Origin: an uncultured virus (IMG/VR IMGVR_UViG_3300010391_000110)
Taxonomy: Duplodnaviria; Heunggongvirae; Uroviricota; Caudoviricetes
Strand: one strand, 5' to 3'
IMG/VR virus record: IMGVR_UViG_3300010391_000110
DNA length: 64,000 nt
The position numbers were made by a program, and so were the translations under genes. Shown piece after piece: positions 36,662 to 52,325 of the stretch (position 1 is the stretch's first letter; the number at the start of each line of letters is the position of its first letter). The notes below the pieces were generated by a model. The model worked only from the letters and a program-made list of their open reading frames with translations. It made no database searches and was not told the origin of the DNA.

Positions 36662-37015
36662 ATGCCCGACGCACCGGATCTCTCGGAGGAGGCGAAGAAG
36701 ATCGCCCAGGCGGCCTTCTCCGTGTTCAAGGACTCCCTGACCGGGTTCGTCGAGCGCCAGGACGTCGACGAGTTCGCCCGGGAGCGCGTCGAGCAGTACA
36801 CCCAGGAGTGGTGGGCCGCCAAGACCGCCACAACGGACGAGGACCGCGCCGAGCACGAGCAGAACCTCAAGCACCTCGTAGCCCAGGCCAGGGGCGAGGC
36901 CCGGCGGCTCCAGATTGCCATCTCCCAGGAGGCCGAGGACACCGTGGGCCGGGTCCTGGAAACCGTCGGCGGAATGATCCTGAAAGTGCTTCCGGCCGTC
37001 ATCGCCGCCTTGTAG
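36662..37015 (+). CDS. Helical protein with hydrophobic C-terminus
   Basis: 117-aa ORF. Confidence 0.6.
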   Translation: MPDAPDLSEEAKKIAQAAFSVFKDSLTGFVERQDVDEFARERVEQYTQEWWAAKTATTDEDRAEHEQNLKHLVAQARGEARRLQIAISQEAEDTVGRVLETVGGMILKVLPAVIAAL

Positions 37016-37025
37016 GAGAAGAGAC

Positions 37026-37448
37026 GTGAATCTTGGAGCCGTGAGACTCGCGTCGCCCGGCCTGCGGCAGGGCGTGCGCATGGGCCAGGCCAAATCCGCC
37101 CTGCTCGTGATGGTCACGCTCGACGGCGGGGCCGCCATGGACGTGCCTCTCGAGATCCTCTACTCGGACGGGTCGAACGTCCAGGGGAAGACGGGCGCCG
37201 CGGGCTTCTTCGAAGCCCCTTACGGCCCGACCCAGTACGGGCCGGCCATCGTCCGGATCTCGCCGCCCCCGGGTGTCGAGGACATCGGGGAAGGCACCGC
37301 GCAGCCGGCCGAACTCACCGCCGCCGGCGTCAAGGTCTCGTTCGCCCTCACGTCGCGTCCGGCCGCCGACAGCGCCAAGCGCCCAGACAGCACGACGGTC
37401 GCGCTCGTGACCGCCGCGCTCCTGGTGGCCGTGGGGATCAGCCTCTAG
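37026..37448 (+). CDS. Leader-bearing, C-terminally TM-anchored protein
   Basis: MNLGAVRLASPGLRQGVRMGQ...; TM end. Confidence 0.7.
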   Translation: MNLGAVRLASPGLRQGVRMGQAKSALLVMVTLDGGAAMDVPLEILYSDGSNVQGKTGAAGFFEAPYGPTQYGPAIVRISPPPGVEDIGEGTAQPAELTAAGVKVSFALTSRPAADSAKRPDSTTVALVTAALLVAVGISL

Positions 37449-37458
37449 GACCACGACG

Positions 37459-38100
37459 ATGCAAAACCACAACGACAAGCCGGAAAGCCTGCGCGCGTGG
37501 TACACCCACTCCACGCGCAAGGCGGTTCGCAGCCTCATCGCCGCCACCGTCGTGTCGTCGCTGGCGATGGTCGCGTTCTGGTTCGTCGTCCCGGCGGATC
37601 TCACCGCGCGGATCCAGGTGGCCAACGGCGCCTTCACGATCCCCATCTTCGGGGGCCTCTGGATCCTGGCCTTCATGTGCATCTGGCTCATCCCGATGCG
37701 GGAGGTCAGCTTCCGGGGGCAGGAATCGCTCGACCGGACGGAGGAGCGCCTGAAGAGCGCCCTCGATGACCGGCTTCTCCCGGCGATCGAATTGTGGACC
37801 CGGATCGGAACGAAAGTCGAGACGGAACTCCTCCCGAAGCTCGAGCGCGTGGTCGACGACGCTCAGAAGGCCGTCAAGTCGTTTCATGACCGGGTTGTTC
37901 CAGCCCATGAGAGCGTGCGCAGGACCGAGAACCTGGTCCAGGCACAACTTGGGATCCTCACCTCCGAGGTGGCCGCCGCGTCTAAGTCCGTCCGGGGCTT
38001 CTTCGGCCCCCAAGGGGCTCCCGCGGACGTCGGGGAGGCGATCCAACTCATGAGCCGTCCTGGGAAGAACGGAAGCGGCCTTCCGGTCAGGAGAATGTAA
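37459..38100 (+). CDS. Two-TM coiled-coil protein
   Basis: Two N-terminal TM helices followed by heptads. Confidence 0.65.
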   Translation: MQNHNDKPESLRAWYTHSTRKAVRSLIAATVVSSLAMVAFWFVVPADLTARIQVANGAFTIPIFGGLWILAFMCIWLIPMREVSFRGQESLDRTEERLKSALDDRLLPAIELWTRIGTKVETELLPKLERVVDDAQKAVKSFHDRVVPAHESVRRTENLVQAQLGILTSEVAAASKSVRGFFGPQGAPADVGEAIQLMSRPGKNGSGLPVRRM

Positions 38101-38103
38101 CGT

Positions 38104-38547
38104 ATGTCCCACACGATCTTCTCGGCATCGCCGTTCCGCGGCGGCTACAGCCATGCGGTCGTCCCGTTCCGCCTGGGCGGTGGGCGGGTGGATGGTGTAC
38201 TGGACTTCCTCGGCCTCGACGAAGACGACGCCGAAGGCCTTCTCAAGCCGCTCGACGAGGCGATCGCCGCGGTCCCCGTCGGCGCCCTGAAAAGCGACTT
38301 CGAAAAGCGCCGCGATGGGTGCATGGCGGAGAAAATCATATCCAAGTACAAGTGCCTGTACGACCTCTTCCAGGACGTCAAGAGCGCCATCAAGGACGGC
38401 GACCAGGCGCCACCCACGGGCGGGACTCCGACAGGAGGGGCGAAGACGACGCCTCCGAGCGAGTTCCCCTGGGTGCCTGTCGGAATCGCCGCTGGCGTCG
38501 GAGTCGCCGCGCTGCTATACTTCGCGTTCAAGAAGAAGAGTGCATAG
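38104..38547 (+). CDS. Leader-bearing, C-terminally TM-anchored protein
   Basis: ...PFRLGG leader; FPWVPVGIAAGVGVAALLYFAFKKK end. Confidence 0.7.
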   Translation: MSHTIFSASPFRGGYSHAVVPFRLGGGRVDGVLDFLGLDEDDAEGLLKPLDEAIAAVPVGALKSDFEKRRDGCMAEKIISKYKCLYDLFQDVKSAIKDGDQAPPTGGTPTGGAKTTPPSEFPWVPVGIAAGVGVAALLYFAFKKKSA

Positions 38548-38562
38548 ATAGGAGAACCGGCC

Positions 38563-39132
38563 ATGCCTTATGCTGCGAGCTTCCGTCCGGCGGCGCACGG
38601 CGCCTTCCTCCCTCAGGTGCGTCTGGCGGGATCCATGACGCGCCAGGTGGCCTACCCGGTCCAGCCGTTCCTGGGCCAGGTCCGCATGGGCGTCACCACC
38701 GAGGAGTGGTACAAGCGGGCGAGCGCCTCGCTCGAGCGCTACCGCTTCCTCAAGAGCCAGATCCAGTCGGTCAACAACGACGTCGGCCGCCAGAGCCTGA
38801 CGATGTGGCTCGGCACCATCGCCGTCGACGAGTCGCCGGAGTACCGCTACGCCACGGTGCTCAGCGACTTCAACGACGCCAAGAAGACCGGCCTGACGGT
38901 CTACGACATCGACCGGCGCACGGGCCGCATCGAGAAGCTCGAGAACATCAACGACCAGTTCAACCAGAAGATCGAGGCCGCCCGGATCAGCTACGGCACC
39001 CGCGACGTGCCCGCCACGACGCCTCCGGGCGGAACCCCGGGCGGGCAGCAGCCGCCGACCAAGACCCCGGACCTGACGGTTCCGCTCCTGGTCGCCGGCG
39101 CCGCGGTCGCCGTGGCCATCATCTTCGGGTAG
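38563..39132 (+). CDS. Leader-bearing, C-terminally TM-anchored protein
   Basis: SFRPAA...PQVRLAG...FLGQVRMG leader; TM end. Confidence 0.75.
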   Translation: MPYAASFRPAAHGAFLPQVRLAGSMTRQVAYPVQPFLGQVRMGVTTEEWYKRASASLERYRFLKSQIQSVNNDVGRQSLTMWLGTIAVDESPEYRYATVLSDFNDAKKTGLTVYDIDRRTGRIEKLENINDQFNQKIEAARISYGTRDVPATTPPGGTPGGQQPPTKTPDLTVPLLVAGAAVAVAIIFG

Positions 39133-39145
39133 GGGAGGTCGCCAG

Positions 39146-39520
39146 ATGCAACTCGCCTACCATCCGGCGCCGCCTGGGCGCCGCGCTGCATGGAAGCCGG
39201 CCGCCATGCGCGGGCCGTTCCAACTCAGCCAGACAAACTCCGAAGAGTTCGGCATCGGGGACGTGCTCATGCCGATCATACGCCTCGGTGCCGCGGGCGC
39301 CGTCGCATACGTGGGGATGCACGCGGCCCTGAACCAGAAGGGGATGCTTTCGGCCCTGGGTTGGGTCGCGTGGGCCGCCGGATTCTTCTCGGCCTTCTCC
39401 ACGCTCGGGGGGCTCTTCATGATGGGGGCGACCCCGAAGTCCTCCCTGGAGCCCGTGGTCGTGTCCGCGCCGACTCCGGCCGCGCCGACGACGGTGCCTT
39501 CGGGGCCCATGGAATTCTGA
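39146..39520 (+). CDS. Leader-bearing two-TM protein
   Basis: AWKPAA...FQLSQ leader; two TM helices. Confidence 0.7.
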   Translation: MQLAYHPAPPGRRAAWKPAAMRGPFQLSQTNSEEFGIGDVLMPIIRLGAAGAVAYVGMHAALNQKGMLSALGWVAWAAGFFSAFSTLGGLFMMGATPKSSLEPVVVSAPTPAAPTTVPSGPMEF

Positions 39521-39598
39521 TCTTCGCACAGTCCAGGGTTGAGCGGTGCGGTGGCGTCACGGTGGCTGGAAGGTTGAATGAAGACGGAGAGCACGACG

Positions 39599-39742
39599 AT
39601 GCCGAAGATCAAAGGGCGCAATTTCCGGCGCGTGTCCCAGAACAAGGACGGCAGCTGCCCGAAGGGCGCGCGGAAGTTCCGCCGCGGGAAGACCCAGACC
39701 ACGGGTTGCTACGCGCCCATGGCCAAGGCCAAGAAGCGGTAG
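39599..39742 (+). CDS. 47-aa highly basic peptide, candidate DNA-condensing core protein (not in ORF track)
   Basis: MPKIKGRNFRRVSQNKDGSCPKGARKFRRGKTQTTGCYAPMAKAKKR; SD GGAG. Confidence 0.65.
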   Translation: MPKIKGRNFRRVSQNKDGSCPKGARKFRRGKTQTTGCYAPMAKAKKR

Positions 39743-39758
39743 AGCAAACCCGATCCCA

Positions 39759-41960
39759 ATGAACGGTGTCGCGCCTGGCGGCGCCGTGCCGGTCGTCAAC
39801 TTCCTCCCGGCGCGTGGCGATGCTCGGCGCGGCGCATGGCTGAGAAATTCGGGGGTCCCCGTGGGACTCCCCCTCCAGCCGCGCTTCGGACTCGGACAGT
39901 TTGCCTGGACCCCGCCTCCGACCGGAGACGCGACCGCCACCAAGTGCTACCACTGCGGGCTGCAGGGGTATCGCCTCATGACCCCGACGATGGCTGCCAT
40001 GGTCCCGGGCGGCTGCACGGAGGTGGATGCGACGCTTTGCGCACCGGCCACTGCGCCTGCGCCCGCTCCGACGGGAGGAACTCCCTGGCCGGGGACCGCT
40101 CCCGCGCAGGCCCACTGGACGGACGGGCCGACCCGGATCAACGTCCTCGTGTTCGAACCCGGCGAACTCAAGCCGTACACGGCCGCCGTCCCGGTCATCA
40201 TCTCGGTCTACAAGTACACGGCCATAGGCGCGGCCGTCACGGAAGTGACCCGCGGCACGACCGGCCCCGACGGCCGGTTCACCTGGCAGGGGTCCGCCCC
40301 GAGCGCGAACAAGGACTATCATTTCCGCGTGCAGGTGCAGGCGCCGGGCAACGCGAAGACGCTCGACGTGGCAGCCCGGCTCGCCCACATCATGGGAGCT
40401 GGGGGCGGCGTCGTATCCGAGAGTTCCCTCACCGTCGTGGCCTGTCCGTCCGGAACCGACTCGCTCGTCTGCGCGGTCGCGCAGGCGCAACTCGACTGGA
40501 AGCAGATCTACGACTCCCAGATCGTGGCCTGGGGGAATTCCACGCAGGCCCAGGGGTTCGCGGCGGACATGGCGCATGCGAACGTGCCGCTCACCCACCC
40601 CGCTCTCAAGGCGAGGTGGGACGTGTACAGCTGGTGGCTGGGCGACCGCGGGATCCCGCCCAAGGATTGGCCTCATCTCGACCGTGAGTTCACCCGGACG
40701 TGGAAACTCTTCGCCACGATCCCGTTCCCGCGCTGGCCGGAGATCGAGGACCTCTTCACGAACTGCTGCAAGGGCGTCCCCATCGGGCAGGGGAAGGACA
40801 ATGCGCGCTACGGGGTCGCCTCCCCGAGACTCTACTCGAAGACCTGGTCGGACTACTTCCCCAGGACCGACAAGCAGATCCTCAAGGATATGGCCGCGGC
40901 TTACCTGCTGGCTCTCGGGTCGATCTTCAGGTGCATGGAGCACAAGATCAGGCGGAAGGCTGCGGATACGGAGCGAACCATCAAGAAAATGGCGCTCATC
41001 TCCTACGCCATAGTGCTCGTCAACCTGCCGTGGCTCATCGCCGCCGGGCCCGGAGGCATCGCCGCGCTTGCGACCGAGACCTGGGACTTCGTCCAGATTA
41101 TGCAGGGAGGGTCAGCCCTCGGATACGGCACAAGCGCCGCGATCGCCGCGGCCGCGATGGCGGCCGGGGATCCAGCTCTGGTCGTGGCCGCGCTCGAGCC
41201 GATCATCAACGAGATCCTCGGCACGGCGGACCCAGCTGTGGCCGCGGCCATCAAGGCGATCTATCCGCAGGTCGTCGGCCTGGCGATGTCCGCCGTGGGG
41301 TCCATCGCCGGCGCTTCCGTGCAGCAGGGGTCGAACGTCATCGCCAACGGCGCGTCGAGTTTCCTCGATCTGTCGACGATCGCGTCGGCCATTGCGGTCA
41401 TGGCCGTCAAAGCGATGGCTGCGGTCCCGAAGATGATCGCCGCCGAGAAGATCGAGCAGTTCCATGACGCCGCTAACAGTATGAACCTCGCCGCGGTCGA
41501 CGTGCTCAACTACGTGGCCGGCGAGGAAGTCTCGCCGATCTTCAAGCCGTTCCTCGTGTGGGTGGTCGAGGCGATGGGACTTCTCGACCTGTTCAGTCAG
41601 GCTATCGACCAGTTCCTCGACCAGTTCCAGCAGTCCCTCGCGGTGGGGGACCAGCAGGGCGGAGGCGTGACGGTCGTGCCCGAAGAGGGCGGAGGCGGCC
41701 CGGCCATCGCTCCCACGGACCCGGACGGCGTGCCGACCGACGTGAACGGAAATCCGCTTCCCGGGGGCGAGGCTCCGCTCACCCCTCCGTCCGGCGGCGG
41801 GCAGGTGCCTGGGTCACCGTCCCCGGACATGCCTGACATGCCGATGGAAACGACCACGAGCGGCATCGGCGGGGTGGGCGGGACAAGCCCCGTGACTGCG
41901 ATCGGCGTGGGCGGAGGTGCAGCAGCGCTTCTCCTTGTGGTGGGGAGTGTGCTATCATGA
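39759..41960 (+). CDS. Large leader-bearing membrane protein
   Basis: ...QPRFGLGQ leader; Ala-rich hydrophobic core; C-terminal TM. Confidence 0.75.
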   Translation: MNGVAPGGAVPVVNFLPARGDARRGAWLRNSGVPVGLPLQPRFGLGQFAWTPPPTGDATATKCYHCGLQGYRLMTPTMAAMVPGGCTEVDATLCAPATAPAPAPTGGTPWPGTAPAQAHWTDGPTRINVLVFEPGELKPYTAAVPVIISVYKYTAIGAAVTEVTRGTTGPDGRFTWQGSAPSANKDYHFRVQVQAPGNAKTLDVAARLAHIMGAGGGVVSESSLTVVACPSGTDSLVCAVAQAQLDWKQIYDSQIVAWGNSTQAQGFAADMAHANVPLTHPALKARWDVYSWWLGDRGIPPKDWPHLDREFTRTWKLFATIPFPRWPEIEDLFTNCCKGVPIGQGKDNARYGVASPRLYSKTWSDYFPRTDKQILKDMAAAYLLALGSIFRCMEHKIRRKAADTERTIKKMALISYAIVLVNLPWLIAAGPGGIAALATETWDFVQIMQGGSALGYGTSAAIAAAAMAAGDPALVVAALEPIINEILGTADPAVAAAIKAIYPQVVGLAMSAVGSIAGASVQQGSNVIANGASSFLDLSTIASAIAVMAVKAMAAVPKMIAAEKIEQFHDAANSMNLAAVDVLNYVAGEEVSPIFKPFLVWVVEAMGLLDLFSQAIDQFLDQFQQSLAVGDQQGGGVTVVPEEGGGGPAIAPTDPDGVPTDVNGNPLPGGEAPLTPPSGGGQVPGSPSPDMPDMPMETTTSGIGGVGGTSPVTAIGVGGGAAALLLVVGSVLS

Positions 41961-41979
41961 TCCGTCAGGAGGAGATCCC

Positions 41980-42462
41980 ATGAAAGCAGATGCCTTCAAG
42001 CCGCAGGGCAAGCAGGTCACCGTCCGGAGCGTCGGAGGGGCGCCCGACTCGATGATCGGGCAGCATTTCCGGATGGGCGGCGCGCAGCAGATGCAGGCGC
42101 CTCCGATCGACGTCAGGCAGGGCGGGGATCGCTTCGTGCCCGTCGGAGGGAACGGAGCCCTGCCGCTCGCGACCTAGCCCGCCATTCAGCAGCAGGCGGT
42201 GCCGCAGCGCCAGCAGCCGCGTGCCTTCCAGCCGGCCGCGCAGCAGCAGTCCGTCCAGGAGCAACTCGCATCCAGGCAGCAACTCGCCGCGCAGCAGCAA
42301 CAGCAGCAGCTCGGCGCGGCCCGGCTCGACGACGGAGGCGAGACCTTCGCCGTCTACATCGACGGGGTCGGCCCGGACGGGGCGCCGTTCTCGACCGACG
42401 CCATCGCGGTGCGCTTCCCGGCGGGCTCGCAGCTCTCCGGGATGAGGTACGAGAAGGTCTGA
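41980..42462 (+). CDS. Gln-rich protein interrupted by an in-frame TAG at 42175-42177 (readthrough, nonsense mutation or two genes)
   Basis: SD AGGAGGAG at ATG 41980; ORFs 41917..42177 and 42199..42462 share a frame. Confidence 0.5.
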
Positions 42463-42464
42463 CC

Positions 42465-42830
42465 GTGAACTTCACCATGATCCCCGTCGCGCCGACTCTG
42501 GACGCGGCGCAGCAGGCCAGGCTGGACGGCGTCGTCCAGGCGGCGCGAGAGCTCATCTCCTTCTCGGACGCGGACCCGGCCCTGGCGGCCCGCGCCGGCG
42601 TCGAGGTGCTCGCGCTCGAGGCGAAGATGGCGCTTCAGGGATCAAGGCTCGGGGGAGGATCGATCGACGCCTACGAGCGCCTGGACGGCATCGTCGCGCT
42701 GGCGGGAAACCGGATCGGGGAATGCGTGGCGGCCATGGACCGCGAGATGTCCGGCAGTCCCGTCGAGCGCCTGAGCAGGATCATCGGCCTGGCCGGAGGG
42801 GCCATCGGGGTCATCCGCAGCATCTTTTAA
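42465..42830 (+). CDS. Hypothetical protein with hydrophobic C-terminus
   Basis: 121-aa ORF. Confidence 0.6.
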   Translation: MNFTMIPVAPTLDAAQQARLDGVVQAARELISFSDADPALAARAGVEVLALEAKMALQGSRLGGGSIDAYERLDGIVALAGNRIGECVAAMDREMSGSPVERLSRIIGLAGGAIGVIRSIF

Positions 42831-42847
42831 CGTCGAGAGGAAAGCTC

Positions 42848-43660
42848 ATGAACCATTCGCTGGGTTGAGGGATGAAGGTGAACCTCCGTTCGTCGAACGG
42901 AGTCGCGCCCCGTCAGGCCGCCCCGGAAGAGGAGCATCCGCGCTCGCTCGGCTGAGGGGGCGGCGGCGCGTTCGTCGCGCCTCCTCCGTCGGAGGAGAGA
43001 CAGTCCCTCCCGCCCGGCTACACCGCGGCCATCCGCGGGAGCGTGCCGGCGCAGCAGGTCGCCCGGCCGGTCTCCGGACGTCCCGGGGGTTTTCAGATCG
43101 GATCGCCCGGCCCGCGCTTCGTCCCGACCGCGCACGAGAAGGGGTTCCGTCCACTGCTCATGGGCGGCGTCCTCGGGCAGGTGCGGCTCGCCCAGCCCGG
43201 CCAGCAGTCCAGGCCGATCCTGGGGCAGGCCACGACGACGGTGACGCCCACGACGGAACCCGTCGAGTCGCAGCCGGTCGGGCAGCCCAAGAAACTCCCC
43301 GCCACCGAGGCGCAGGCGGGTCAGGGTCAGGAATCCAACTGGCGCCGGAAGGCCTGGGGGCATTTCCGCCGCATGGATGCCGCCGAGATGGCGGTCTACC
43401 TGCATGGCATCGAAGAGCGCATGGACCAGGTCAAGGTCCCCCGCGGCATCGTCGAGCAGATCCGGAAGCGCCTGGAGAGCTTCGCCACGACGGCGAAGAC
43501 CGACGCCGAGGCGATCACCATCGACGAACAGGAGGTCGCGGCGCTCGACAACGCCATCATGTTCCTCGAACAGACCGAGGCGGCGCAGGGGCCGAATCTC
43601 GGCGCCATCGCGGCGGCGGTGGCGGGTCTCGGCCTTCTGACGGCGGTGCTGGTGGCGTGA
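42848..43660 (+). CDS. TM-anchored protein with two in-frame TGA codons (candidate double selenoprotein)
   Basis: SD GAGG 7 nt before ATG 42848; MNHSLG*GMKV...PRSLG*GGGG... continues in frame into ORF 43043..43660. Confidence 0.7.
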
Positions 43661-43995
43661 TGATGCGGATCGAGAAGCCGTCCGGATTCTCTCCCGCCCG
43701 CCAGTTCGCGCTCCGTCCGGTTGTGCCCGCGCCCCGTCCGGTTGTGCCCGCGCCCGCGCCACGCCGGCTGGAGGCCTCGCACCCCGTCCTCGCCCAGGCC
43801 GTCCTGGCCGATCCGGAGCTTCGCGAGATCGGGGGGTTCCTGTCCGAGGCCCGGGAGCAGCTCGCCGCGATCGAGCGCAGCTACGTGAACCTGGCCATCG
43901 CCCTCGGGCAGGCCGAGGCCGACCTGGCCGTGGCACAGGCCCGAGCGACCGTCGAGATGTACGAGGCCGCCTACGTCCGGGCGGGAGGAGCGTAA
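43660..43995 (+). CDS. Leader-bearing coiled-coil protein
   Basis: TGATG overlap; 21-bp tandem duplication encoding RPVVPAP twice. Confidence 0.65.
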   Translation: MMRIEKPSGFSPARQFALRPVVPAPRPVVPAPAPRRLEASHPVLAQAVLADPELREIGGFLSEAREQLAAIERSYVNLAIALGQAEADLAVAQARATVEMYEAAYVRAGGA

Positions 43996-43997
43996 CC

Positions 43998-44291
43998 GTG
44001 AAGATCCGCGTCACCGGCTGAGAACTGTCCGGACTCGTCAGGCCCGTCGGGCCCGTCACGATCGAGAAGACCAAGGTGGTCCAGAAGGACGTCCTCGTCG
44101 CCAAACTCTCCGGGGCGGCGCAGGGTACGATTGCTGTTGTGCGCGACGCCAAGCACAACTATCATGTGGTGGCTCCGAAGGAGCTCGGAGGAACGCGGGC
44201 CGTTCCCGCGGATTCCCTCACCGACTGTCTGCATCAGGCGGTTTACGAGATATCGGAAGCGAAGAAGAGCCGAGGAGGTCGGAAGCGATGA
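43998..44291 (+). CDS. Small protein with in-frame TGA at codon 8 (candidate selenoprotein)
   Basis: SD GGAGGAG, GTG 43998; MKIRVTG*ELSG... is in frame with ORF 44076..44291. Confidence 0.7.
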
Positions 44292-44758
44292 ACGCAACGG
44301 GATTCCCGGTCCAGTTCCCCACGGCCCCGTCGATGCCTCAGGTGCGGCTGGCGCAGCCGTGGGCCCCGGCGCGGCGTCAGCAGCCCCTGGCCGTCCGCGC
44401 GACGCGCCCCGTGGTTCCGACCCTGGGCGGCTCCAGGGTGGGGCAGACCACCGCGCAGCTGTGGGCTCGCGGGTCGGACATCAGCTTCTCGATCCTGACG
44501 GGCGTCGCCGCCATCGTGAGCGGCATCGCGCTCGTCGTGAACTTCGGGAAGGGCGACCCCGCCATTCCGCCGCGCATCGTGCCCGGCATGCCGCCCGTCC
44601 CAGGACGCTCGGCGACCTCCGGGAAGCCGATGTGGTACGTGATCGGCGGGCTGATCTCGGTCCTGGGGGCCGCGAACATCTGGTCGAGCATCAACCGGGC
44701 CTCGGCGATCCAGGCGGCATCGGCGCCGCCGGCCGCTGCGCCGCCGTCGGGGGGCTAG
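44288..44758 (+). CDS. Leader-bearing two-TM protein
   Basis: MPQVRLAQPWAPA...SRVGQ leader. Confidence 0.7.
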   Translation: MNATGFPVQFPTAPSMPQVRLAQPWAPARRQQPLAVRATRPVVPTLGGSRVGQTTAQLWARGSDISFSILTGVAAIVSGIALVVNFGKGDPAIPPRIVPGMPPVPGRSATSGKPMWYVIGGLISVLGAANIWSSINRASAIQAASAPPAAAPPSGG

Positions 44759-44793
44759 GCCTTTCGGACAGACAGACGAGGAGGACTCAAGCA

Positions 44794-45138
44794 ATGCAAG
44801 CCATCTCCTTTCCGGCCACCTCGATGCCCGGCCGGTGGCGGCCGGACCACCAGGTCGACGCCGCCCTGCACGGGACGTGGACGCCCGCGCAGCGCCAGGC
44901 GTGGGCGGTCGCCCGGAGCCACGCGCTCCAGGGGCGCCTCTCCCAGGCTTCGACCGCGGCGGTCGAGACGCCCACCGAGCTCATGATCTCGGTGTCGGCG
45001 GCCTTGGCCGCGCTCTTCGGAGGCCTGTCGCTGGCCTTCGGCGCGCCGAGGGGCGCACCCACGCTCACGTGGGTGGGCATCCTGGCGGCCACGGTCGGCG
45101 GCTTGAAGCTCCTGCAGACGGGCTCCAAGCTCGCGTAG
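44794..45138 (+). CDS. Leader-bearing two-TM protein
   Basis: SD GAGGAGG; WTPA...GRLSQ leader. Confidence 0.65.
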   Translation: MQAISFPATSMPGRWRPDHQVDAALHGTWTPAQRQAWAVARSHALQGRLSQASTAAVETPTELMISVSAALAALFGGLSLAFGAPRGAPTLTWVGILAATVGGLKLLQTGSKLA

Positions 45139-45146
45139 GAGGCGGC

Positions 45147-45458
45147 GTGAAAGTGGACAACCCTGCGGTGATGCTCTCGGCCCGTCCGCCCATGGCGAGG
45201 CCGTGGAAGCCCGCTCCGTTCCGGCAGGGACCGTCTCCGTTCAGCAGGAGCCTGGCCGGGGCGTCCGTAGGGCAGCCGTCGAAAGGGACGCTCTTCGACG
45301 ACCCCTTCGTGGCCCTTCTCCTGAGCGGCGCTTCGACGGTCCTTGCGGCCATCAGCACGGTCAAGCTGGAGGGCGCCGCGCGCATCCTGGCGTGGGCGGT
45401 CATGATCGGGGCCGGCACGCAGACGCTCGTCAGCGGGGTGCGCTATCTCCGGTCCTAG
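45147..45458 (+). CDS. Leader-bearing two-TM protein
   Basis: SD AGGAGG; WKPAPF...SVGQ leader. Confidence 0.65.
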   Translation: MKVDNPAVMLSARPPMARPWKPAPFRQGPSPFSRSLAGASVGQPSKGTLFDDPFVALLLSGASTVLAAISTVKLEGAARILAWAVMIGAGTQTLVSGVRYLRS

Positions 45459-45470
45459 TCGGGAGCTGCT

Positions 45471-45722
45471 ATGAAGATGCGGTTCAGCGAACTGGCGCCG
45501 GGCTCCTGTTTCACGCGTGGCAGCCGCGGTGGCGTCCGGAAGAAGCTGCCGGACGGACGGGTTGTGGGCGTGTCGGATGTGGGAAAACCAAGGACTCGAG
45601 GCATGAAGGGCGACCCGGAAGTGAACGACGTCTCGTGCCCCCTCAACCTGCTCGGCGTCGGACTCAGGAAAAATCCGGCCGCCGTGATCGAGATCGGATC
45701 CGTCGTTCGCCGATGCCGGTGA
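45471..45722 (+). CDS. Small basic protein
   Basis: 83 aa, R/K-rich. Confidence 0.55.
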   Translation: MKMRFSELAPGSCFTRGSRGGVRKKLPDGRVVGVSDVGKPRTRGMKGDPEVNDVSCPLNLLGVGLRKNPAAVIEIGSVVRRCR

Positions 45723-45732
45723 GAGGTGGCGA

Positions 45733-46146
45733 ATGGCCGTCGAACTGATCGAACTCGGAGCCCGGCGCGGGAAGATCCTGCGTAAAGGGTACACGCGGAA
45801 GGGCGGGAAGCGCGTCAAGCAGACGTACGTGAAAGACACTGGCAAGCCCGGCAAGACGCCCAAGTCGAAACGCGTGCTCCCGCCCATCAAGCCGGGCACC
45901 CTAGCCTGCGAAGGCGACGCCTGGAGGCACGGCGACGCGCCCGAGAAGCGGATGCGGGTCCTGCGGTGCATCATCGTCAGCCGGCACGTCCCGTGCGTGA
46001 CAGTCATCCGGGACCTGAACGTCGTGGCCAACTATTCGGAGCGGACGTCCCCGGCCACACACAAGGCCGCTCGAGAAGATATGGAACGCCTCCGGATGCA
46101 GGGCGTCTGTCTCAGGAGCAGATCGAACGGACAGGCGGCTCCTTGA
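45733..46146 (+). CDS. Basic protein resembling an NCLDV family (DUF5771-like)
   Basis: RKGYTRK...KDTGKPGK...LPPIKPGTL...VIRDLNVVANYSERTSP; similarity recalled from memory. Confidence 0.5.
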   Translation: MAVELIELGARRGKILRKGYTRKGGKRVKQTYVKDTGKPGKTPKSKRVLPPIKPGTLACEGDAWRHGDAPEKRMRVLRCIIVSRHVPCVTVIRDLNVVANYSERTSPATHKAAREDMERLRMQGVCLRSRSNGQAAP

Positions 46147-46179
46147 TCCGCCGCTGAACCGGAGAAGGAGGCGTGGTCC

Positions 46180-47130
46180 TTGTCGCTGTCGATGCTCGCC
46201 CAGACCCAGAGGTCAGGCCTCGCCCCCGCAGGATCCGGCCGCACGGCCGTCCTGTCCCGGGCCGAAGCCGAGATGATGGTCCGCATCGTCAGGGCGGTCT
46301 CTGAATTCGCCACAGGCTTCCCGGTCGAGTTCCACGCGTACTGCCCGGTTGCCCGTTGGGAGCCCATCCTGGCGGCCGCCGCCCAGGCGGTCGGGCAGAT
46401 CGAGACCCAGCTTGCGTCGGCCGCCAAGACCATCGTCGTTCCGCTGGACCTCCTCATGTCCATCGTCGACCTCGAGGAGTGCGTGTCCGGCGCGCGTGAC
46501 GCGCGGCTTTCGAACGGGAAGGTGGCCCTCATCATCGCGACCGTCGGCGTTATCGGGCAGAGTTTTTTCGGGCTGACCTATCTGGCGACCCCGGCGTACA
46601 TCATCGCGCTGGCGATCTCGCTTGGTCGGCCGCTCCTCCAGCTCGTCAAAGGGGAGCCCGCGGCGCCCTTCGTCCCGGACACGGTTCCCGGCGCCAGGAT
46701 CACCGGGCTTTCCGGAGGCGGCTGCTCGCCGGCGCCGTCGCTCGGGCATCACACGAGCAAGGCCAAGGTGATCGAGCGCGTGATCGTCTCCCCGGAACGC
46801 CGCCTCCAGAGATTCCACTGGGGGAGCGTCACGCCGATGACCCTCTCCGGACAGGCCGGGACGTGCCTGGTCAAGGGCGAGTGGCGCGTCCGGGTCGAGG
46901 GCTGGGGCGACGACCGGATCACCCTCACCGACGGGTGGGAGTTCGCGCAGCGCGACCAGTGCTTCGACGCCAGGAATGAGATCTCCGTGCGCGAACCCTG
47001 CGGGGTTCCCGCGCGGGATACGGGATTCGGCGATATTCAGGTATACTCAGGGCATGAGAAGAGCATCTGGGCCGAGTACGTGGGCCCGTTCACCGAAGGC
47101 ACCTGCCGCGTGGCGGGGCCCTTCGGCTGA
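46180..47130 (+). CDS. Membrane protein with Cys-rich C-terminal domain; may extend through TGA to 47244
   Basis: SD AAGGAGG, TTG start; two TM helices. Confidence 0.65.
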   Translation: MSLSMLAQTQRSGLAPAGSGRTAVLSRAEAEMMVRIVRAVSEFATGFPVEFHAYCPVARWEPILAAAAQAVGQIETQLASAAKTIVVPLDLLMSIVDLEECVSGARDARLSNGKVALIIATVGVIGQSFFGLTYLATPAYIIALAISLGRPLLQLVKGEPAAPFVPDTVPGARITGLSGGGCSPAPSLGHHTSKAKVIERVIVSPERRLQRFHWGSVTPMTLSGQAGTCLVKGEWRVRVEGWGDDRITLTDGWEFAQRDQCFDARNEISVREPCGVPARDTGFGDIQVYSGHEKSIWAEYVGPFTEGTCRVAGPFG

Positions 47131-47240
47131 ACCGGCGACGCCCAGGAGCATGCCGTCATGGACGGCGGCATGAGCCTCCCCGGAGGGGACGGCGCGTATA
47201 TCCTGTACGACGCGGACGGCAACGTCGTCGAGGAGTCGCC

Positions 47241-47759
47241 ATGAAACGGAAGGACGCCCTAGCCGACAGGCTGATCGCCGGGACATCCGACGCGGCGCTG
47301 CGCCTCGCGTGGTGGCCCCGGCACAGCGCCATGGTCGGACTCTACATCGACAGCATGGACCAGGCCCAGCCCTTCAAGGGCCGCGACGTCATGTTCCACG
47401 CGGCCAAGTACTGGGACGCCCTCGTCCTGGACGCTTCCGGGCTGATGAGCGAGCACACGGCGCTCGAGATCGCCCTCGTCGATGCCGTGGCGGTCAAGGA
47501 CACGTCCGCCGTGGACCGCGTGAGCGAGCTGCTGAGCGCCAACATCCAGCAGCAGCAGGCCATGTACGTCGCCAGGATCCCGGAGTTCCCGGCCGGCCGA
47601 TTCTCGGAACTCATACGCGAACATGCGCGCCTCTTCTTCGAGACGCTGGCCAGCAAGACGGCCGGGGATGTCAGGAAGCGCTTGCTGTGCGATGCCAAAA
47701 GAGGGCACAATGCCGTATCTCTCGGGGCGTTTATGACCGAATGGGTGACGGGGAACTGA
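47241..47759 (+). CDS. Helical hypothetical protein
   Basis: SD GAGGAG; 172 aa. Confidence 0.65.
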   Translation: MKRKDALADRLIAGTSDAALRLAWWPRHSAMVGLYIDSMDQAQPFKGRDVMFHAAKYWDALVLDASGLMSEHTALEIALVDAVAVKDTSAVDRVSELLSANIQQQQAMYVARIPEFPAGRFSELIREHARLFFETLASKTAGDVRKRLLCDAKRGHNAVSLGAFMTEWVTGN

Positions 47760-48568
47760 TGGAGCACAACGCCGCGTGCCCGCCGAATGCGCCGGTCGCC
47801 CTCGCGGACGGCAAGCTCATCATGCCGGACGACCAGGTGACGCTGGCCGATCTCTGCGAGCTCATCCCGCTCATCCTGGAGACCATGGCCGCAGCGCAGG
47901 GCGGCGGAGGAGGGGGCGCGGGCCTTCTCGTGCCCGGCGCCCAGGTCCCGATCGCCGGCGCGCCCATGCTCGGACCTTTCGGGACGCCGGCGCTGCCTTC
48001 GAACACGAGCCCGTTCGGTCCCCCGAAAGGGAGCGCCATCGCCGCTTCCGGGGGCGGCGGAGGTTTCGGGGGCGGGGGCGGTGGAGGCGGCCGCGGCGCA
48101 CGCGGCCTGCAGGGGCCTGCCGGGCCGGCGGGCGCGCCCGGACCCGGCACGATCGTGCCCATGATCAAAACCGACGGGAACTTCACGGTCGCGTCCGTTT
48201 CTCCGTTCCTTCCCATCCCGGGCACCCAGAAGAAGATCACGCTCCTGGAGGCCGGGCCCGCCATCTTCCTGATTCAGGGGGTCTTCGGAGGCAACTCGAT
48301 AGCGGGCGTGTCGAACGGTCAGATCGGGCTCCGGGTGGACGGCACCGATTACCCGCTCACGGCGAACCTGATCCACACGTTCGTGGGTGGCGTCGGCGAG
48401 TTCCTCGCGTCGGCGACCGCGAACTTTCCGATCATGCTGGCCGCCGGAGAGCATGACGTGGAGCTCATCGTGCGCGGAGACTCGTCGCTCGGAGCGCCGA
48501 CCGGACTGCCCGTCGTGGTCCAGGCGACGCCGGCGATCCCGCTCGCGCTCACGATCATCCACAAGTAG
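47759..48568 (+). CDS. Protein with short collagen-like (GXY) stalk and C-terminal beta domain, candidate short spike
   Basis: TGATG overlap; GARGLQGPAGPAGAPGPG. Confidence 0.65.
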   Translation: MEHNAACPPNAPVALADGKLIMPDDQVTLADLCELIPLILETMAAAQGGGGGGAGLLVPGAQVPIAGAPMLGPFGTPALPSNTSPFGPPKGSAIAASGGGGGFGGGGGGGGRGARGLQGPAGPAGAPGPGTIVPMIKTDGNFTVASVSPFLPIPGTQKKITLLEAGPAIFLIQGVFGGNSIAGVSNGQIGLRVDGTDYPLTANLIHTFVGGVGEFLASATANFPIMLAAGEHDVELIVRGDSSLGAPTGLPVVVQATPAIPLALTIIHK

Positions 48569-48570
48569 GC

Positions 48571-49233
48571 ATGAACACCTGGACGCCCGCTCCCTACCGA
48601 GCGCGCCTGGGGCAGACGTCGTTCCAGAAGACGGCCCAAGCCATCGTCGAGGAGGCCGAACCCAAGCTGCGCCGGGTGATCGCCGACGAGCGGGGGCGCA
48701 TCGTGGACGCGGCTGATTCGGCACTGCCTTTTCTCGGCCTCTCCGCGGCCGCCTATCTCGGGACCGCCTACCTTGCCCCGGACGGCGTCATGAAGCCGGT
48801 CGGGTACGGTGCGTCCGCCGTTCTCCTGGCCGTCGGAATCTTGCGCGGCCTAGCGATGATGGACCAGGAGGAAGAGGCCGCTCCGGCCGCCCCGGAACCC
48901 AAGACGGGGCTCATCGGAGACGTGATCGGGACGCTCGTCGACCCCGCCAGCCGGAAGATGGCGACGGCGATCGTCGCGGAGGCCGTGCCCGCCGTCCAGG
49001 GGATCCTCGTCGACGAGCGCGCGTTGGTTGCCGACGCGGTCCAGACTGCGGTGCCTTTCATCGCAGTCGCTGTTGCAGTCTTCCTCGGAACGGCGTATCT
49101 TGTACCCGAGACGATGCCGATGGCGAAGATGGGCGGATACCTGGCGGCCGCCGGCGGGGGCCTGTTCGGCCTCTACCGCGGCGCCGAAAAGGTGCGCGGC
49201 GAATCGGCACCCCCACAGGAGGTGCGCGCGTGA
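48571..49233 (+). CDS. Leader-bearing four-TM protein with internal duplication
   Basis: MNTWTPAPYRARLGQ; AIV.EA.P....I..DER....DA...A.PF......LGTAYL.P repeated twice. Confidence 0.75.
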   Translation: MNTWTPAPYRARLGQTSFQKTAQAIVEEAEPKLRRVIADERGRIVDAADSALPFLGLSAAAYLGTAYLAPDGVMKPVGYGASAVLLAVGILRGLAMMDQEEEAAPAAPEPKTGLIGDVIGTLVDPASRKMATAIVAEAVPAVQGILVDERALVADAVQTAVPFIAVAVAVFLGTAYLVPETMPMAKMGGYLAAAGGGLFGLYRGAEKVRGESAPPQEVRA

Positions 49234-49490
49234 GATCCACGTTTTCCATGGCTCCATGCGCGCCGTCCGGGATGGGCGTGCGCCGCGCAACGCTCGGCCA
49301 GCAGTGACCTACTGACGGCGGAGGGGCCGTGTGCCCCACAGGTGACGTACCGCCGACCGGAGGCACGGTGCCGCCAACCGGAGGCACGGAGCCGACCGGA
49401 ACGCAGCCTTCGGCGCCGGCGGGAATCCCCGTCGTCCCGATCGCCATCGGCGTTGGCGCGATCGCGCTCCTGGCGGCCATCGCTTCTTGA
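49230..49490 (+). CDS. 86-aa TM-anchored protein with in-frame TGA (candidate selenoprotein; not in ORF track)
   Basis: SD AGGAGGT, GTGA overlap; ...RRATLGQQ*PTDGGGAVCPTGD...IPVVPIAIGVGAIALLAAIAS. Confidence 0.75.
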
Positions 49491-49504
49491 TCGGAGGTCG
49501 GTCC

Positions 49505-49876
49505 ATGGCGTCGCTGCGCAGATTCGAACCCGCTGGATACGGACCCGTTCACCTCGGCGTCGTTGAAGCCTGGTGGAGTTCGGGCGGCGTCGTAGCGATG
49601 GATCCAGGGCCGGCACTTGAGCCGCCCGTGCCCGTGGCGTATTCCCATGCTCCGTACCCGACGCGCGGCATCTCCCGCACTCCAGTCACCACGCGGCCGG
49701 TCTGCGCCTGCAAGTTCTTCGGCTTGGGGCAGGGCGGCTGCGCCACGCCGGTGGAGGGCGCTCCCGTAGTCGCGGGAGGCGGATCCGCCCCGGCATCGGG
49801 GCCGTCGACGCTGACCATTGTCGGCGGCGTCGGGGTCCTCGGGGTGCTTGGCCTGCTGGCGGCGGGCGTGATCTAG
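49505..49876 (+). CDS. Leader-bearing, C-terminally TM-anchored protein
   Basis: SD GGAGGT; CACKFFGLGQGGC; TM end. Confidence 0.7.
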   Translation: MASLRRFEPAGYGPVHLGVVEAWWSSGGVVAMDPGPALEPPVPVAYSHAPYPTRGISRTPVTTRPVCACKFFGLGQGGCATPVEGAPVVAGGGSAPASGPSTLTIVGGVGVLGVLGLLAAGVI

Positions 49877-49937
49877 CGGAACGTCTTGCATCCAAGGGCG
49901 GTCACGGTAGAATTGCTGAAGGTTGAGGGGAATGGAC

Positions 49938-50729
49938 ATGATGAGCCACCGAGGCCTGACCCCGATCGACCGCTCGATGAGCGGCCTCCGGAGTTCGGCC
50001 CTGGCCCCGCGGCTGAGCGCGTTCATGCCCCAGGTCCGTCTGGCCGGCGCGCGCGGCCCGGCGCCTTACCGGGCGCCTTACCGGGCGCCCTACCGGCCGC
50101 CGCTCTTGGCGTCGCCTTCCAGCCCGCGGATGGGCGTCAGCTGGTCGGATGTGCCCTCGACGATCGTCCTGGGGGCGGCCGGAATCGGATCGATGATCCT
50201 CTCCGGGATCATGCCCGACCCGTTCAAGACCATCGCCCAGGTCGCTGGCGTTGGACTCATCGCCGTCGGCATCCTCAACCTGATGACCGGCGCCGCGTCG
50301 GCTGCTGAGACCACCACGCCGAGTTCTCAGTTCACCGCGGCGGCGCCCGTCGAATTCCAGCAGGTGACCGCAAAGGTCATGAAGCCCGCCCGGGACGAAG
50401 AGGTCCATCGCGGCTACTTCAGCAGCGACTACGACGTCGAGGTGCTCTGGACAAATCCGTCGCCCAAGGATGTGACGATCCCTTACCAGGTCTACGTGGA
50501 GGAACTTCCGGAGGGCGGCTTCTTCCAGGACAAGTTCAGCGGCGTCGTCCACACGGGCGTCGTCCAGCTCGCGAAAAACGGGGGCACCAAGATCGTGCCC
50601 CTCGAGCTCGACCTCCAGCATCGCGGGCTGGGCGCGGCCCTCGTGACCGGAATCCGTCTTACCATTCGTAAGATCGCCTCGGACGGCCAGAGCTTCGACG
50701 CGACGTCAACTCGGTTCTTCGTGTACTAG
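49938..50729 (+). CDS. Leader + two TM + beta-sandwich protein (paralog 1)
   Basis: MPQVRLAG...PRMG leader; TTGCAT-N16-TAGAAT upstream; start uncertain. Confidence 0.7.
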   Translation: MMSHRGLTPIDRSMSGLRSSALAPRLSAFMPQVRLAGARGPAPYRAPYRAPYRPPLLASPSSPRMGVSWSDVPSTIVLGAAGIGSMILSGIMPDPFKTIAQVAGVGLIAVGILNLMTGAASAAETTTPSSQFTAAAPVEFQQVTAKVMKPARDEEVHRGYFSSDYDVEVLWTNPSPKDVTIPYQVYVEELPEGGFFQDKFSGVVHTGVVQLAKNGGTKIVPLELDLQHRGLGAALVTGIRLTIRKIASDGQSFDATSTRFFVY

Positions 50730-50739
50730 GAGGCGGCTT

Positions 50740-51501
50740 GTGCTGACGCAGGGGGCGGTTCGCATCTCGAGGCAGGGGTTCACTGCTCTCGGTATGTTGC
50801 CGCAGGCGCCTCCGCTCAGGCGCGCACCCAGGCCATATGTGCCCGCGTTCCGTCCCGCACCGCTCCGTCAACTCGGGCGTCCGAATCGCCTATCGATGGG
50901 GCAGACATTCAAGTTGGAAAACCTCCCTCGCGCCATCTCATTTGGCGTTCTCGGTGGAGCTTCGATCGTTCTGGGGACCACGCTTCCAGGAACAACTGGA
51001 ACCCTCGCAACGGCGATCGGCTTGGGCCTGGTCGGGTACGGCTTGTACAGCGCCTTCTCCGGTCCCGCCGCGCCGCCGAAGACCGAGGTCGAAGTGGACC
51101 GTCAGGCACTTCCGGAAGAGCAGACGAGAGAGAACGTGCGTGTCACCGCGGGGTTCACCTATCCTCCTAAGGACAGCATCATCAATCAGAGTCTACTGGG
51201 GCATTACCGCCTTGCGTTCTCGGTCATGAACCGCGGGGAGGTTCCGGTGGACGTGATCGCCATGGTCCGCGTAGAAGAATTCACGCGCATCACGAGAGAA
51301 AAAGGGGTTCAAGAGAAGACCTACGAAATCCGCGGGATCAAACCCGGAGCCCAGAGGGGGGTCGTAGACCCAGAGTTCCCCTCGAGTTTTATCACGGGCC
51401 GCCATGACGCGGTCGCGACCCTGTCCCTTCAGGTTGCCAACGACGATGCCGGCGCCCCGTACGGCTTCGCGGTATTATTCGCGATAGACCCGGGCGTGTA
51501 A
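50740..51501 (+). CDS. Leader + two TM + beta-sandwich protein (paralog 2)
   Basis: QGAVRISRQGF...FRPAP...SMGQ. Confidence 0.7.
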   Translation: MLTQGAVRISRQGFTALGMLPQAPPLRRAPRPYVPAFRPAPLRQLGRPNRLSMGQTFKLENLPRAISFGVLGGASIVLGTTLPGTTGTLATAIGLGLVGYGLYSAFSGPAAPPKTEVEVDRQALPEEQTRENVRVTAGFTYPPKDSIINQSLLGHYRLAFSVMNRGEVPVDVIAMVRVEEFTRITREKGVQEKTYEIRGIKPGAQRGVVDPEFPSSFITGRHDAVATLSLQVANDDAGAPYGFAVLFAIDPGV

Positions 51502-51512
51502 GGAGAATATCC

Positions 51513-52325
51513 GTGACGCAAATGCAAGGCGCGGTTCGCATCTCGAAGCAGGGATTCATGCCTTCGGGCGCGACTCCACGCCTGCGGCTGCTGGGGGACG
51601 CCCCCCGCCAGCACGCCCCCTTCCGTCCCGCTCCCCGCGCCTCCCTCGCCCAGATCGTCCAGGTGACGCCGCAGGTCGACGCGCCCATCAACATCAGCCT
51701 CGGATCGGCTCCGGTCGTCATCGGTGCGTTCGTGGGCGCCGGCGCCGCCGTCGCGATCGGCGCGGCCATCCCGGAGGCGCGCACGTTCACGACCTTGGCC
51801 GCGCTCGGCCTGGCCGGGTTCGGCGTCTACAACCTGCTCAAACGGAGTCCTCAGGGCGATGCGCCCATCGAGGGCGGCGGCGAGCTCCCGGGTTCCGTCT
51901 CGACGCCCGGCGGCGGCTCTGCCGCGAGCGCCCCCATCGCGGCCAGTTCCGAACAGCTCGTCGCCGGAATCTCCGGCCGCGTGATCAGCCCGGCCGAGTT
52001 CCAGACCGTGGATCTCTCCCCATTCACCTCCGGGGTTCCGATCCGCGTCCGCCTGAGCAATCCAGCCTCCCAAGGCGTCACCTTCGACCTCGTGCTTATC
52101 GTGAACGAGATCCCGGTCCCGTTCGAAGGCGGCGAGCAGACCAACTCGGTATCCTCCCGGGTGTCGCTCGGCGCCGGGGAGACGCGGGACGTCGACATCC
52201 CGATCAGCCTCGTCACCTGGGGCTGGAGCGCCAATCAGGTGGACGTCTACCTGACCGTTCAGAAGCGCACGATCGCCGGAGGGGCTCCGTCGCTCGTGGA
52301 CACCCGCCACTTCGTGGTGGATTAA
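51513..52325 (+). CDS. Leader + two TM + beta-sandwich protein (paralog 3)
   Basis: QGAVRISKQGF...FRPAP..SLAQ. Confidence 0.7.
   Translation: MTQMQGAVRISKQGFMPSGATPRLRLLGDAPRQHAPFRPAPRASLAQIVQVTPQVDAPINISLGSAPVVIGAFVGAGAAVAIGAAIPEARTFTTLAALGLAGFGVYNLLKRSPQGDAPIEGGGELPGSVSTPGGGSAASAPIAASSEQLVAGISGRVISPAEFQTVDLSPFTSGVPIRVRLSNPASQGVTFDLVLIVNEIPVPFEGGEQTNSVSSRVSLGAGETRDVDIPISLVTWGWSANQVDVYLTVQKRTIAGGAPSLVDTRHFVVD

Follow-up and report, generated by a model that had tools for sequence, protein, structure and literature searches.

An in-frame TGA shared by two divergent viruses as a candidate selenocysteine codon in a hidden gene for a small membrane protein

When a TGA divides a small reading frame in the genome of an uncultured virus, does it end a short peptide, or is it translated, and into which amino acid? 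This question is raised by the frame at 49230-49490 (plus strand) of the virus record IMGVR_UViG_3300010391_000110 (IMG/VR), which we analyzed over 64 kb of its 78,431-bp contig (hereafter the window; guanine-cytosine content (GC) 65.7%). A preliminary description, made from the letters alone, had taken the two halves around the TGA at 49305-49307 for one hidden gene. Our analysis shows that 49230-49490 is one real gene of 86 codons, missed by gene callers because of its internal TGA. We judge it likely that this TGA is translated, and we put the probability that it is read as selenocysteine (Sec) at roughly 55%.

The gene follows a Shine-Dalgarno site, AGGAGGT (49217-49223), located 7 nucleotides (nt) upstream of its GTG start, which overlaps the TGA stop (49231-49233) of the upstream gene, 48571-49233. 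A leader of 25 codons ending in T-L-G-Q-Q (49230-49304) is followed, two residues past LGQ, by the TGA in question, a candidate codon for selenocysteine or for some other recoding; the whole frame reads MRSTFSMAPCAPSGMGVRRATLGQQ, TGA 49305-49307, PTDGGGAVCPTGDVPPTGG...IAIGVGAIALLAAIAS, stop TGA 49488-49490. Past the internal TGA lie a hairpin, GGGGC-CGUGU-GCCCC (49323-49337, -8.4 kcal/mol), which is a candidate for an element resembling the selenocysteine insertion sequence (SECIS); a Val-Cys pair (GTG TGC, 49329-49334), whose GTG is the sole possible restart codon after the TGA; a 21-nt tandem array (49350-49400) that encodes a Pro/Thr/Gly stalk of 2.1-2.6 VPPTGGT units according to Tandem Repeats Finder; and a C-terminal hydrophobic anchor, IPVVPIAIGVGAIALLAAIAS (49425-49487). 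All of these features are on the plus strand, and the AGGAGGT site, the GTG/TGA overlap, the frame and the hairpin at 49323-49337 were present as the preliminary description had placed them. The product is a small membrane protein made of a leader with a phi-G-Q motif, a short Cys loop, the Pro/Thr/Gly stalk and a C-terminal transmembrane anchor. An internal repeat had also been proposed, in which *PTDG after the TGA would mirror CPTGD; this resemblance is at chance level, and Tandem Repeats Finder gave only the VPPTGGT array, which contains neither a TGA nor a Cys codon. In the source annotation, the stretch 49234-49504 is left without a gene; of eight open reading frames (ORFs) tested by exact look-up, seven were absent, the sole recorded one being the next gene, 49505-49876. 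A scan of 48900-50000 found no promoters or terminators.

Orthologues of the gene were reached only via the neighbouring gene. The read-through protein itself, with its TGA translated as C, had no homologues either in a word-indexed search (34 candidates) or in a full HMMER search of 1.84 billion representatives. Using the paralogues 49923, 50740 and 51513 as queries gave six relatives besides the window's own, and an alignment of the closest four led to ten metagenome loci, of which the four with 10 kb of flank (L003, L005, L007 and L008) were compared. The same alignment had no close relative in genome contigs, and the gene upstream of 49230 had none in metagenome contigs. All four flanked loci have the gene order of the window, with the small orthologue adjoining, directly upstream, the orthologue of 49505-49876. 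In three of them it is uninterrupted: L007 8020-8334 (104 amino acids), L008 8667-8942 (91 amino acids) and L005 8067-8336 (89 amino acids). These proteins follow the pattern MRGSFF...R(M/L)(G/A)Q...C-D-G-x-V-C-R-(I/V)-T, a Pro/Thr stalk and FPV(V/I)PVVAG(L/V)G.... Counting the window, the phi-[G/A]-Q motif is found in all five orthologues, as is a GGAG-type site before the start. With tblastn, the L007 protein matched window positions 49218-49481 in a single high-scoring segment pair (HSP) that spans the TGA (30% identity over 103 residues, E 1.4e-5), and it likewise matched L003 8592-8867 in a single HSP (E 1.9e-5). Hence, the claim of a hidden gene was borne out: both halves belong to one gene, because the orthologues are uninterrupted and the HSPs cross the TGA.

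The orthologue in L003 carries a TGA as well, at 8658-8660. Its sequence runs ATG...TCA CTT GGC CAG ACG TGA GAG TTG CAA CCT GAC GGC CCT GCT GTA TGC... and ends with TAG. At the protein level, ...SLGQT-TGA-ELQPDGPAVC... in L003 compares with ...TLGQQ-TGA-PTDGGGAVC... in the window, placing the TGA at the same offset past LGQ in both. Beyond it, the frame stays open, in frame and alignable for 60 codons in the window and 71 in L003, with D-G, V-C and the anchor kept in both genomes, which excludes a decaying pseudogene; FP[VL][VI]PV.AG.G is kept in the anchors of the orthologues. The two small proteins are 37% identical (31/83), no closer to each other than either is to the Cys forms, and the L003 DNA has a GC of 55.7% vs 65.7% in the window. 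For the 316-residue neighbour, identity between the window and L003 is 59% vs 46-49% to the others, making these two the nearest relatives, and an ancestor common to both is the probable source of the TGA. The dual meaning of TGA that had been proposed for this gene also stands, as the gene's own terminator is TGA 49488-49490, where the aligned orthologue ends are TAG.

The reading of the codon was checked against the assembled data. A Logan contig of sequencing run X1 (44,014 nt, depth 24.3) covers 47000-52000 and differs from the window only at 49259 (C>G) and 50013 (C>A). This separate assembly also reads TGA at 49305, and not the TGC or TGT that the preliminary description had named as evidence against a recoded codon, so an assembly error does not account for the TGA. 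Run X1 is probably the same sample as the window and hence not an independent sampling; runs X2-X4 gave short or unrelated pieces that do not cover 49305. The change at 49259 turns leader codon 10 (49257-49259) from TGC, Cys, into TGG, Trp, which is the residue in this column in all four orthologues and which places the leader under protein-level constraint. The window base at 49259 is possibly a minor allele or an error.

A second TGA shared with L003 lies in the gene 46180-47244 (plus strand), which comprises a 316-codon frame, the TGA at 47128-47130 and 37 more conserved codons, and which ends at an ATGA overlap with the gene starting at 47241. Its L003 counterpart (5597-6619) has a TGA at 6503, in the same column. 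In a best-HSP comparison of the loci, the apparent stop of 46180-47130 is a TGA in L003 too, whereas L005, L007 and L008 read on. The window has ...AGPFG-TGA-TGDAQEHAVMDGGMSLPGGDGAYILYDADGNVVEESP at this second site and L003 has ...AGPFG-TGA-TGDAKEHAEMDAGMDLPGGKGSYTLYDINGKVVEALG, compared with ...AGPFE-C-RKSAMSHAVKNGG... in L007; after an Arg, the window peptide reads VAGPFG-x-TGDAQEHAVMDGG.... The column is occupied by Cys in L007, Ser in L005 and Asn in L008, and the TGA falls inside a C-terminal domain that is kept in all five viruses.

Past this second TGA, the 37 codons of the window and L003 comprise 12 identical, 12 synonymous and 13 non-synonymous pairs. Identity by codon position is 30, 29 and 19 of 37, with the third position the most variable, and amino-acid identity is 24/37 in frame vs 13/36 in each other frame. 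The first nine codons include no start codon, and seven of their nine residues are identical. When the 354 window TGAs flanked on each side by 30 open codons were ranked by codon usage, TGA 47128 also came first (15.3 upstream, 23.0 downstream). The full length of the gene is thus 354 codons and not 316, and the 110-nt "gap" before 47241 is coding. This pattern of substitutions indicates that the window virus and the L003 virus translate through the TGA at the second site, and translation of the TGA at 49305 becomes far more likely as a result. A hairpin follows here as well, CAUGCCGUC-AUGGAC-GGCGGCAUG (47149-47172, plus strand; -14.5 kcal/mol, and -9.4 kcal/mol in L003), which could be a relic SECIS or serve another purpose. 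Cysteine parity of the protein was considered as a pattern and rejected, as it was not consistent.

Codon usage and motif statistics were also applied to the small gene on its own. Among the six frames, its C-terminal half ranks best and its leader second-best by codon usage, and GC at third codon positions gives no clear marking of the 49230-49490 frame. The codon-score scan of the lower-GC loci was uninformative, and a frame-wide comparison with stops as X was too noisy. Leader similarity of the 25-residue ORF, measured by a position matrix, a leave-one-out hidden Markov model and short-query BLAST, had no power, with true left-out members scoring at noise. As such motif tests on a single ORF lack power, the case for the leader rests on the orthologues.

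In both TGA forms of the small gene, the codons x-Ala-Val-Cys-x fold into a hairpin, which in L003 is (GCC)CUGC/UGUAU/GCAG(U)GG(U) and has a stability of -8.8 kcal/mol, compared with the -8.4 kcal/mol of the window. The loops, CGUGU in the window and UGUAU in L003, begin 20 and 23 nt past the TGA and have G-U at loop positions 2-3. The model of a bacterial SECIS quoted in PMC13188914 sets a loop of 3-9 nt on a stem of 4 bp or more, with a G among the first two loop nucleotides, a distance of 16-37 nt past the UGA and a minimum free energy of -7.5 kcal/mol or lower. The hairpin at the first site agrees with the model as quoted there in both the window and L003. RNAalifold gave four consensus pairs between the two, of which two are compensatory (GC to CG and GC to UA), and these changes come from different amino acids, Gly/Pro before the Ala-Val-Cys core and Pro/Ser after it. 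The Cys forms L005, L007 and L008 cannot form the hairpin at the aligned codons. As a control, 1960 codon positions in gap-free coding alignments of the window and L003 were put through the same rules, and 36 of them (1.8%) had at least two compensatory pairs. Resting on two sequences, the covariation at the first site is suggestive and not proof.

The position of the TGA was also compared with the cysteines of related proteins. The first Cys of L005, L007 and L008 stands directly before D-G, where the TGA forms have Thr or Pro; the second Cys, that of V-C, is invariant in all five orthologues. The adjacent gene is an architectural paralogue with leader, LGQ, Cys, linker and anchor, and its family has LGQ-x-C in four of five members (L003, L005, L007 and L008) and LGQ-GG-C in the window. 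The offset of LGQ-x-TGA equals that of LGQ-x-C in this paralogous family. The preliminary description had put the TGA at the Cys position of a repeat; the offset of two residues past LGQ agrees with a Cys position, but in a strict alignment of the orthologues the TGA falls outside the first-Cys column.

Several considerations argue for Sec. At all four sites (two genes in two genomes) the interrupting codon is TGA, and the relatives have Cys, Ser, Asn or a neighbouring Cys, which would fit a Sec position. The TGA has persisted even though one substitution, to TGC or TGT, would be enough to encode Cys. The stops sit where a truncated product would make no sense, past a leader in one gene and within a domain in the other, and a covarying hairpin is a candidate signal at the first site.

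A series of other results weighs against selenocysteine or against the frame as such. On the side of the decoding machinery, ARAGORN found no tRNA genes in the 64-kb window or in seven loci scanned, and none of the 66 ORFs scanned against Pfam was a Sel protein. The protein of the small gene has neither a redox-enzyme fold nor the CxxU/UxxC motif usual for selenoproteins. In the best ungapped alignment, the TGA of the small gene lies two residues (window) or four (L003) upstream of the first-Cys column, and the column at the second site is variable rather than a conserved Cys, with Cys in only one of the three non-TGA forms. TGA forms make up two of the five orthologues and belong to sister lineages, and each TGA is possibly a single ancestral event. 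Concerning the hairpins, column-conserved ones occurred at 185 of the 1960 control positions (9.4%), and a comparable hairpin follows 209 of 728 plus-strand and 206 of 761 minus-strand TGA triplets of the window (~28%). The hairpin at the second site lies over H-A-x...G-G codons and is present in all five orthologues, whether they have a TGA or not; it agrees with the SECIS model only partly, as neither of the first two loop nucleotides is a G in the window and the L003 loop has 10 nt. In Rfam, no family reached the gathering score, and around both TGAs nothing of relevance came up at E <= 10. Lastly, the codon-usage score was -1.1 for the leader, compared with 13.9 ± 8.0 in windows of 25 codons from true genes, and 5.3 for the C-terminal half, compared with 29.7 ± 13.7. 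In addition, a comparable hairpin follows six of 26 ordinary TGA stops of the window, meaning that a hairpin alone is not distinctive, and the 71-nt fold at TGA 49305 is no more stable than its shuffles (z +0.34).

All the evidence for a translated codon applies equally to the insertion of another amino acid by a near-cognate Trp, Cys, Arg or Gly tRNA or by a Cys-charged SelC-like tRNA, which would give a low yield of full-length protein together with a terminated leader peptide. Such read-through would fit the variable column at the second site (C, S, N) as a position of little residue importance, a hairpin there that is not specific to TGA forms, and the lack of any Sec machinery among the genes found. 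The base following the window TGA is C, which is a weak termination context in E. coli. However, the base after the TGA differs among the four sites (C, G, A, A), leaving no common context, and the residues of the relatives are Cys, Ser, Asn or a neighbouring Cys and never Trp, Arg or Gly. The terminated products would moreover be incomplete, unlike those of known pairs with a finished short form, and we know of no hairpin-stimulated read-through mechanism in bacteria. We consider insertion of an amino acid other than Sec unlikely, though it is the most probable of the alternatives. A split gene, where the TGA would end a leader peptide of 25 residues and the stalk and anchor would arise by re-initiation (at GTG 49329 in the window and TTG 8664 in L003), appears still less probable. 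A GGAGG does lie 4 nt upstream of GTG 49329, the L003 TTG is two codons past the TGA, the break would coincide with the presumed site of leader processing, and the residues between the TGA and the restart are few and weakly conserved (D-G). Yet the Gly codons of the stalk yield GGAGG repeatedly, for example before GTG 49368, and the restart codons are at differing, non-conserved positions: the Val codon is GTA in L003, whose TTG, its sole restart candidate, has no GGAG site and corresponds to ACT/CCT in the window. The independent start at GTG 49329 that the preliminary description had allowed for thus finds no conserved restart codon. The halves further share one frame in both genomes, and the leader retains Trp10 and LGQ though a free peptide would have no partner. 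At the second site a split gene is untenable, as seven of the nine residues after the TGA are identical, the differences include synonymous ones and a start codon is missing.

That the frame is a pseudogene created by a nonsense mutation, or a non-coding frame open by chance, we regard as very improbable. It would explain that no gene was called, that the codon-usage score is low and that two large protein searches gave no homologues, but the same TGA is found in a relative diverged to 37% identity and by 10 GC points, the 60-71 codons downstream are open and alignable, and four other viruses have orthologues in the same gene order. A reassignment of TGA across the genome (translation tables 4 or 25, or as in recoded phages) has a negligible chance of being correct. 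The share of TAG and TAA stops, 33 of 59, is seemingly high at 66% GC; nevertheless, TGA is the commonest stop in the 59 window genes (TGA 26, TAG 22, TAA 11), and it terminates nine of 28 L003 genes, a count that includes the TGA of the second site itself. The recoding is local and not a changed genetic code, because TGA ends other genes in both genomes and the TGA at 49488 aligns with TAG stops.

Decoding as Sec at 49305 would proceed as follows. The SelB and tRNA-Sec machinery of the host would insert selenocysteine at the TGA, guided by the small hairpin that begins 20 nt downstream, and TGA 49488, which has no such signal, would terminate. The leader would presumably be cleaved at G-Q, and the product may sit in the virion membrane. 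In the mature protein, Sec would be found two residues past the leader motif and be paired with the invariant Cys nine residues on, a Sec-Cys pair standing where the relatives have a Cys-Cys pair. Taking both sites together, the odds are about even that this virus lineage encodes at least two selenoproteins, both membrane or structural proteins, whose completion would depend on the SelB and tRNA-Sec system of the host and in which Sec would replace a disulfide-forming Cys near the mature N-terminus.

These genes can be set beside several known systems. Like bacterial selenoprotein genes such as E. coli fdhF, they have an in-frame UGA inside a conserved ORF, with a Cys of some relatives at or next to the position, and, at the first site, a small hairpin with G-U in its loop that starts 20-23 nt past the UGA, within the limits given in PMC13188914. 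The same codon also terminates elsewhere, here even within the same gene. Unlike them, the genes are viral, their products are small and membrane-anchored or belong to the structural block without a recognisable redox fold, and the Sec and Cys columns do not coincide exactly among the orthologues. The selenoproteins of eukaryotic viruses are the glutathione-peroxidase homologues of poxviruses, captured host redox enzymes with a eukaryotic SECIS in the 3' untranslated region or in the ORF. The candidate genes described here would resemble them in that a virus uses host Sec decoding for a gene of its own, but the families here are new, the candidate hairpin is of the bacterial type, and overlapping genes with Shine-Dalgarno sites mark the setting as prokaryotic. 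In phage Q-beta, UGA read-through extends a structural protein from coat to A1, and the unextended product is in itself the complete major coat protein. There the stop is at a domain boundary, whereas the stops here follow a leader or interrupt a conserved domain and the position in relatives is taken by Cys, Ser or Asn rather than Trp; neither site has its stop at the end of a complete short product of the A1 kind. Phages with recoded stop codons reassign TAG or TGA across their late genes. The in-frame stops in late or structural genes likewise break gene calls in those phages, but here there are two TGA sites only, and TGA is still the commonest terminator.

Regarding the virus itself, the genes in the left half of the window match phage-type replication and modification families in Pfam, comprising a D5_N/PriCT_1/DUF5906 primase-helicase, AAA_24, the DEAD_2 and ResIII helicases, an RNase_T exonuclease, Mom, GP88, HNH_3 and DUF6011. 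For the primase, the phage relatives are distant only (<60% identity). In our reading, the window comes from an uncultivated bacterial virus whose genes overlap and have strong Shine-Dalgarno sites; the assignment to a virus rests on the replication genes and not on recognised capsid genes. Neither similar DNA nor close protein relatives were found in the phage or IMG/VR viral-contig collections searched. Among the 35 plus-strand ORFs scanned between 29 and 59 kb, 33 have no PHROGs family and there are few weak Pfam matches; glycosyltransferase and epimerase genes follow downstream of this block. No suppressor tRNA was found within the 64 kb. Genomes of Latescibacterota and Gemmatimonadaceae (L011-L013) were considered as a lead to the host and rejected, as what they share is a short FATGFPVEF-type motif within a host protein and not a prophage.

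Several TGA stops of the window are doubled, with a second TGA immediately after or at most two codons on, for example at 43658-43663. On the minus strand, three ORFs in the same frame occupy 14613-15425, divided by TGAs at 15164-15162 and 14975-14973, the former ranking second in the coding-score scan of the window TGAs. Both were rejected as read-through sites, as the downstream ORFs each have an ATG of their own a few codons on and look separate.

The proteins of the structural block, which have zero PHROGs matches, show recurrent features. LGQ occurs 10 times in 15,027 residues vs 4.2 expected, and of 18 proteins called in the stretch 37026-52325, seven carry [LM]-G-Q within their first 75 residues. 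Leaders ending in R-x(1-3)-phi-[G/A/S]-Q, often after a (P)QVRLA(G)-like motif, are common among these dark proteins; the leader-bearing genes start at 37026, 38563, 39146, 39759, 43043, 46180, 48571, 49230, 49505, 50740 and 51513. The phi-G-Q motif is retained in the orthologues of four families of the related viruses, and it seems to be a common site of processing or targeting, for instance for a maturation protease, of which none was identified. At least nine proteins have a hydrophobic C-terminal helix, most of them behind a Pro/Thr/Gly-rich linker (36662-37015, 37026-37448, 38104-38547, 38563-39132, 39759-41960, 42465-42830, 43043-43660, 49230-49490 and 49505-49876). Such helices point to a particle rich in tail-anchored membrane proteins, possibly of a virus type not yet described.

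Other genes around 49230 are also distinctive. The upstream gene, 48571-49233, encodes a membrane protein of 220 residues that is internally duplicated, with two copies of A-x-A-I-V-x-EA-x-P...DER...PF...FLGTAYL(A/V)PE. Its sole relative in the large protein collection is P0002 (40% identity), which as called has no N-terminal LGQ leader; for the gene neighbouring 49230-49490, the ESM Atlas gave no hit of 0.9 or above. The protein of 47759-48568, a possible fibre or receptor-binding protein, has Gly-rich and collagen-like (GPAGPAGAPGPG) stretches followed by a C-terminal domain and shares 57% identity with its orthologue in L003. A 35-nt stretch encoding QGAVRIS(R/K)QGF occurs at 50748-50782 and 51524-51558, across the starts of the paralogues 50740 and 51513, in copies that are 89% identical. 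Related codons, CCTCAGGTGCGTCTGGCG (PQVRLA), are found again at 38611, 44336 and 50028; those at 44336 are in frame with the ORF 44288-44758, and this ORF, instead of 44131-45138, is probably the true gene of that stretch.

A full-text literature search, whose coverage leaves out subscription journals, did not bring up any selenoprotein from a virus of prokaryotes, and the papers on viral selenoproteins concern, by their titles, only viruses of animals or people. The words "phage", "virus" and "viral" are absent from the main text of both a 2026 review of the prokaryotic selenoproteome (PMC13188914) and a 2025 paper on selenoprotein prediction with deep-Sep (PMC12013277).

If the TGA codons are indeed read as Sec, a prokaryotic virus would for the first time be seen to have selenoprotein genes, and these would form two new families outside the redox enzymes, with selenocysteine placed in structural membrane proteins instead. 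The reproduction of the virus would then be tied to Sec-competent hosts and their selenium supply, and the two in-frame TGAs would serve as a direct marker for host prediction. Even with another residue in place of Sec, site-specific translation of TGA, retained at two positions by two divergent DNA viruses, would be unusual for bacteria, and in such genomes gene callers leave real genes uncalled, as with 49230-49490, or shortened, as with 46180-47244.

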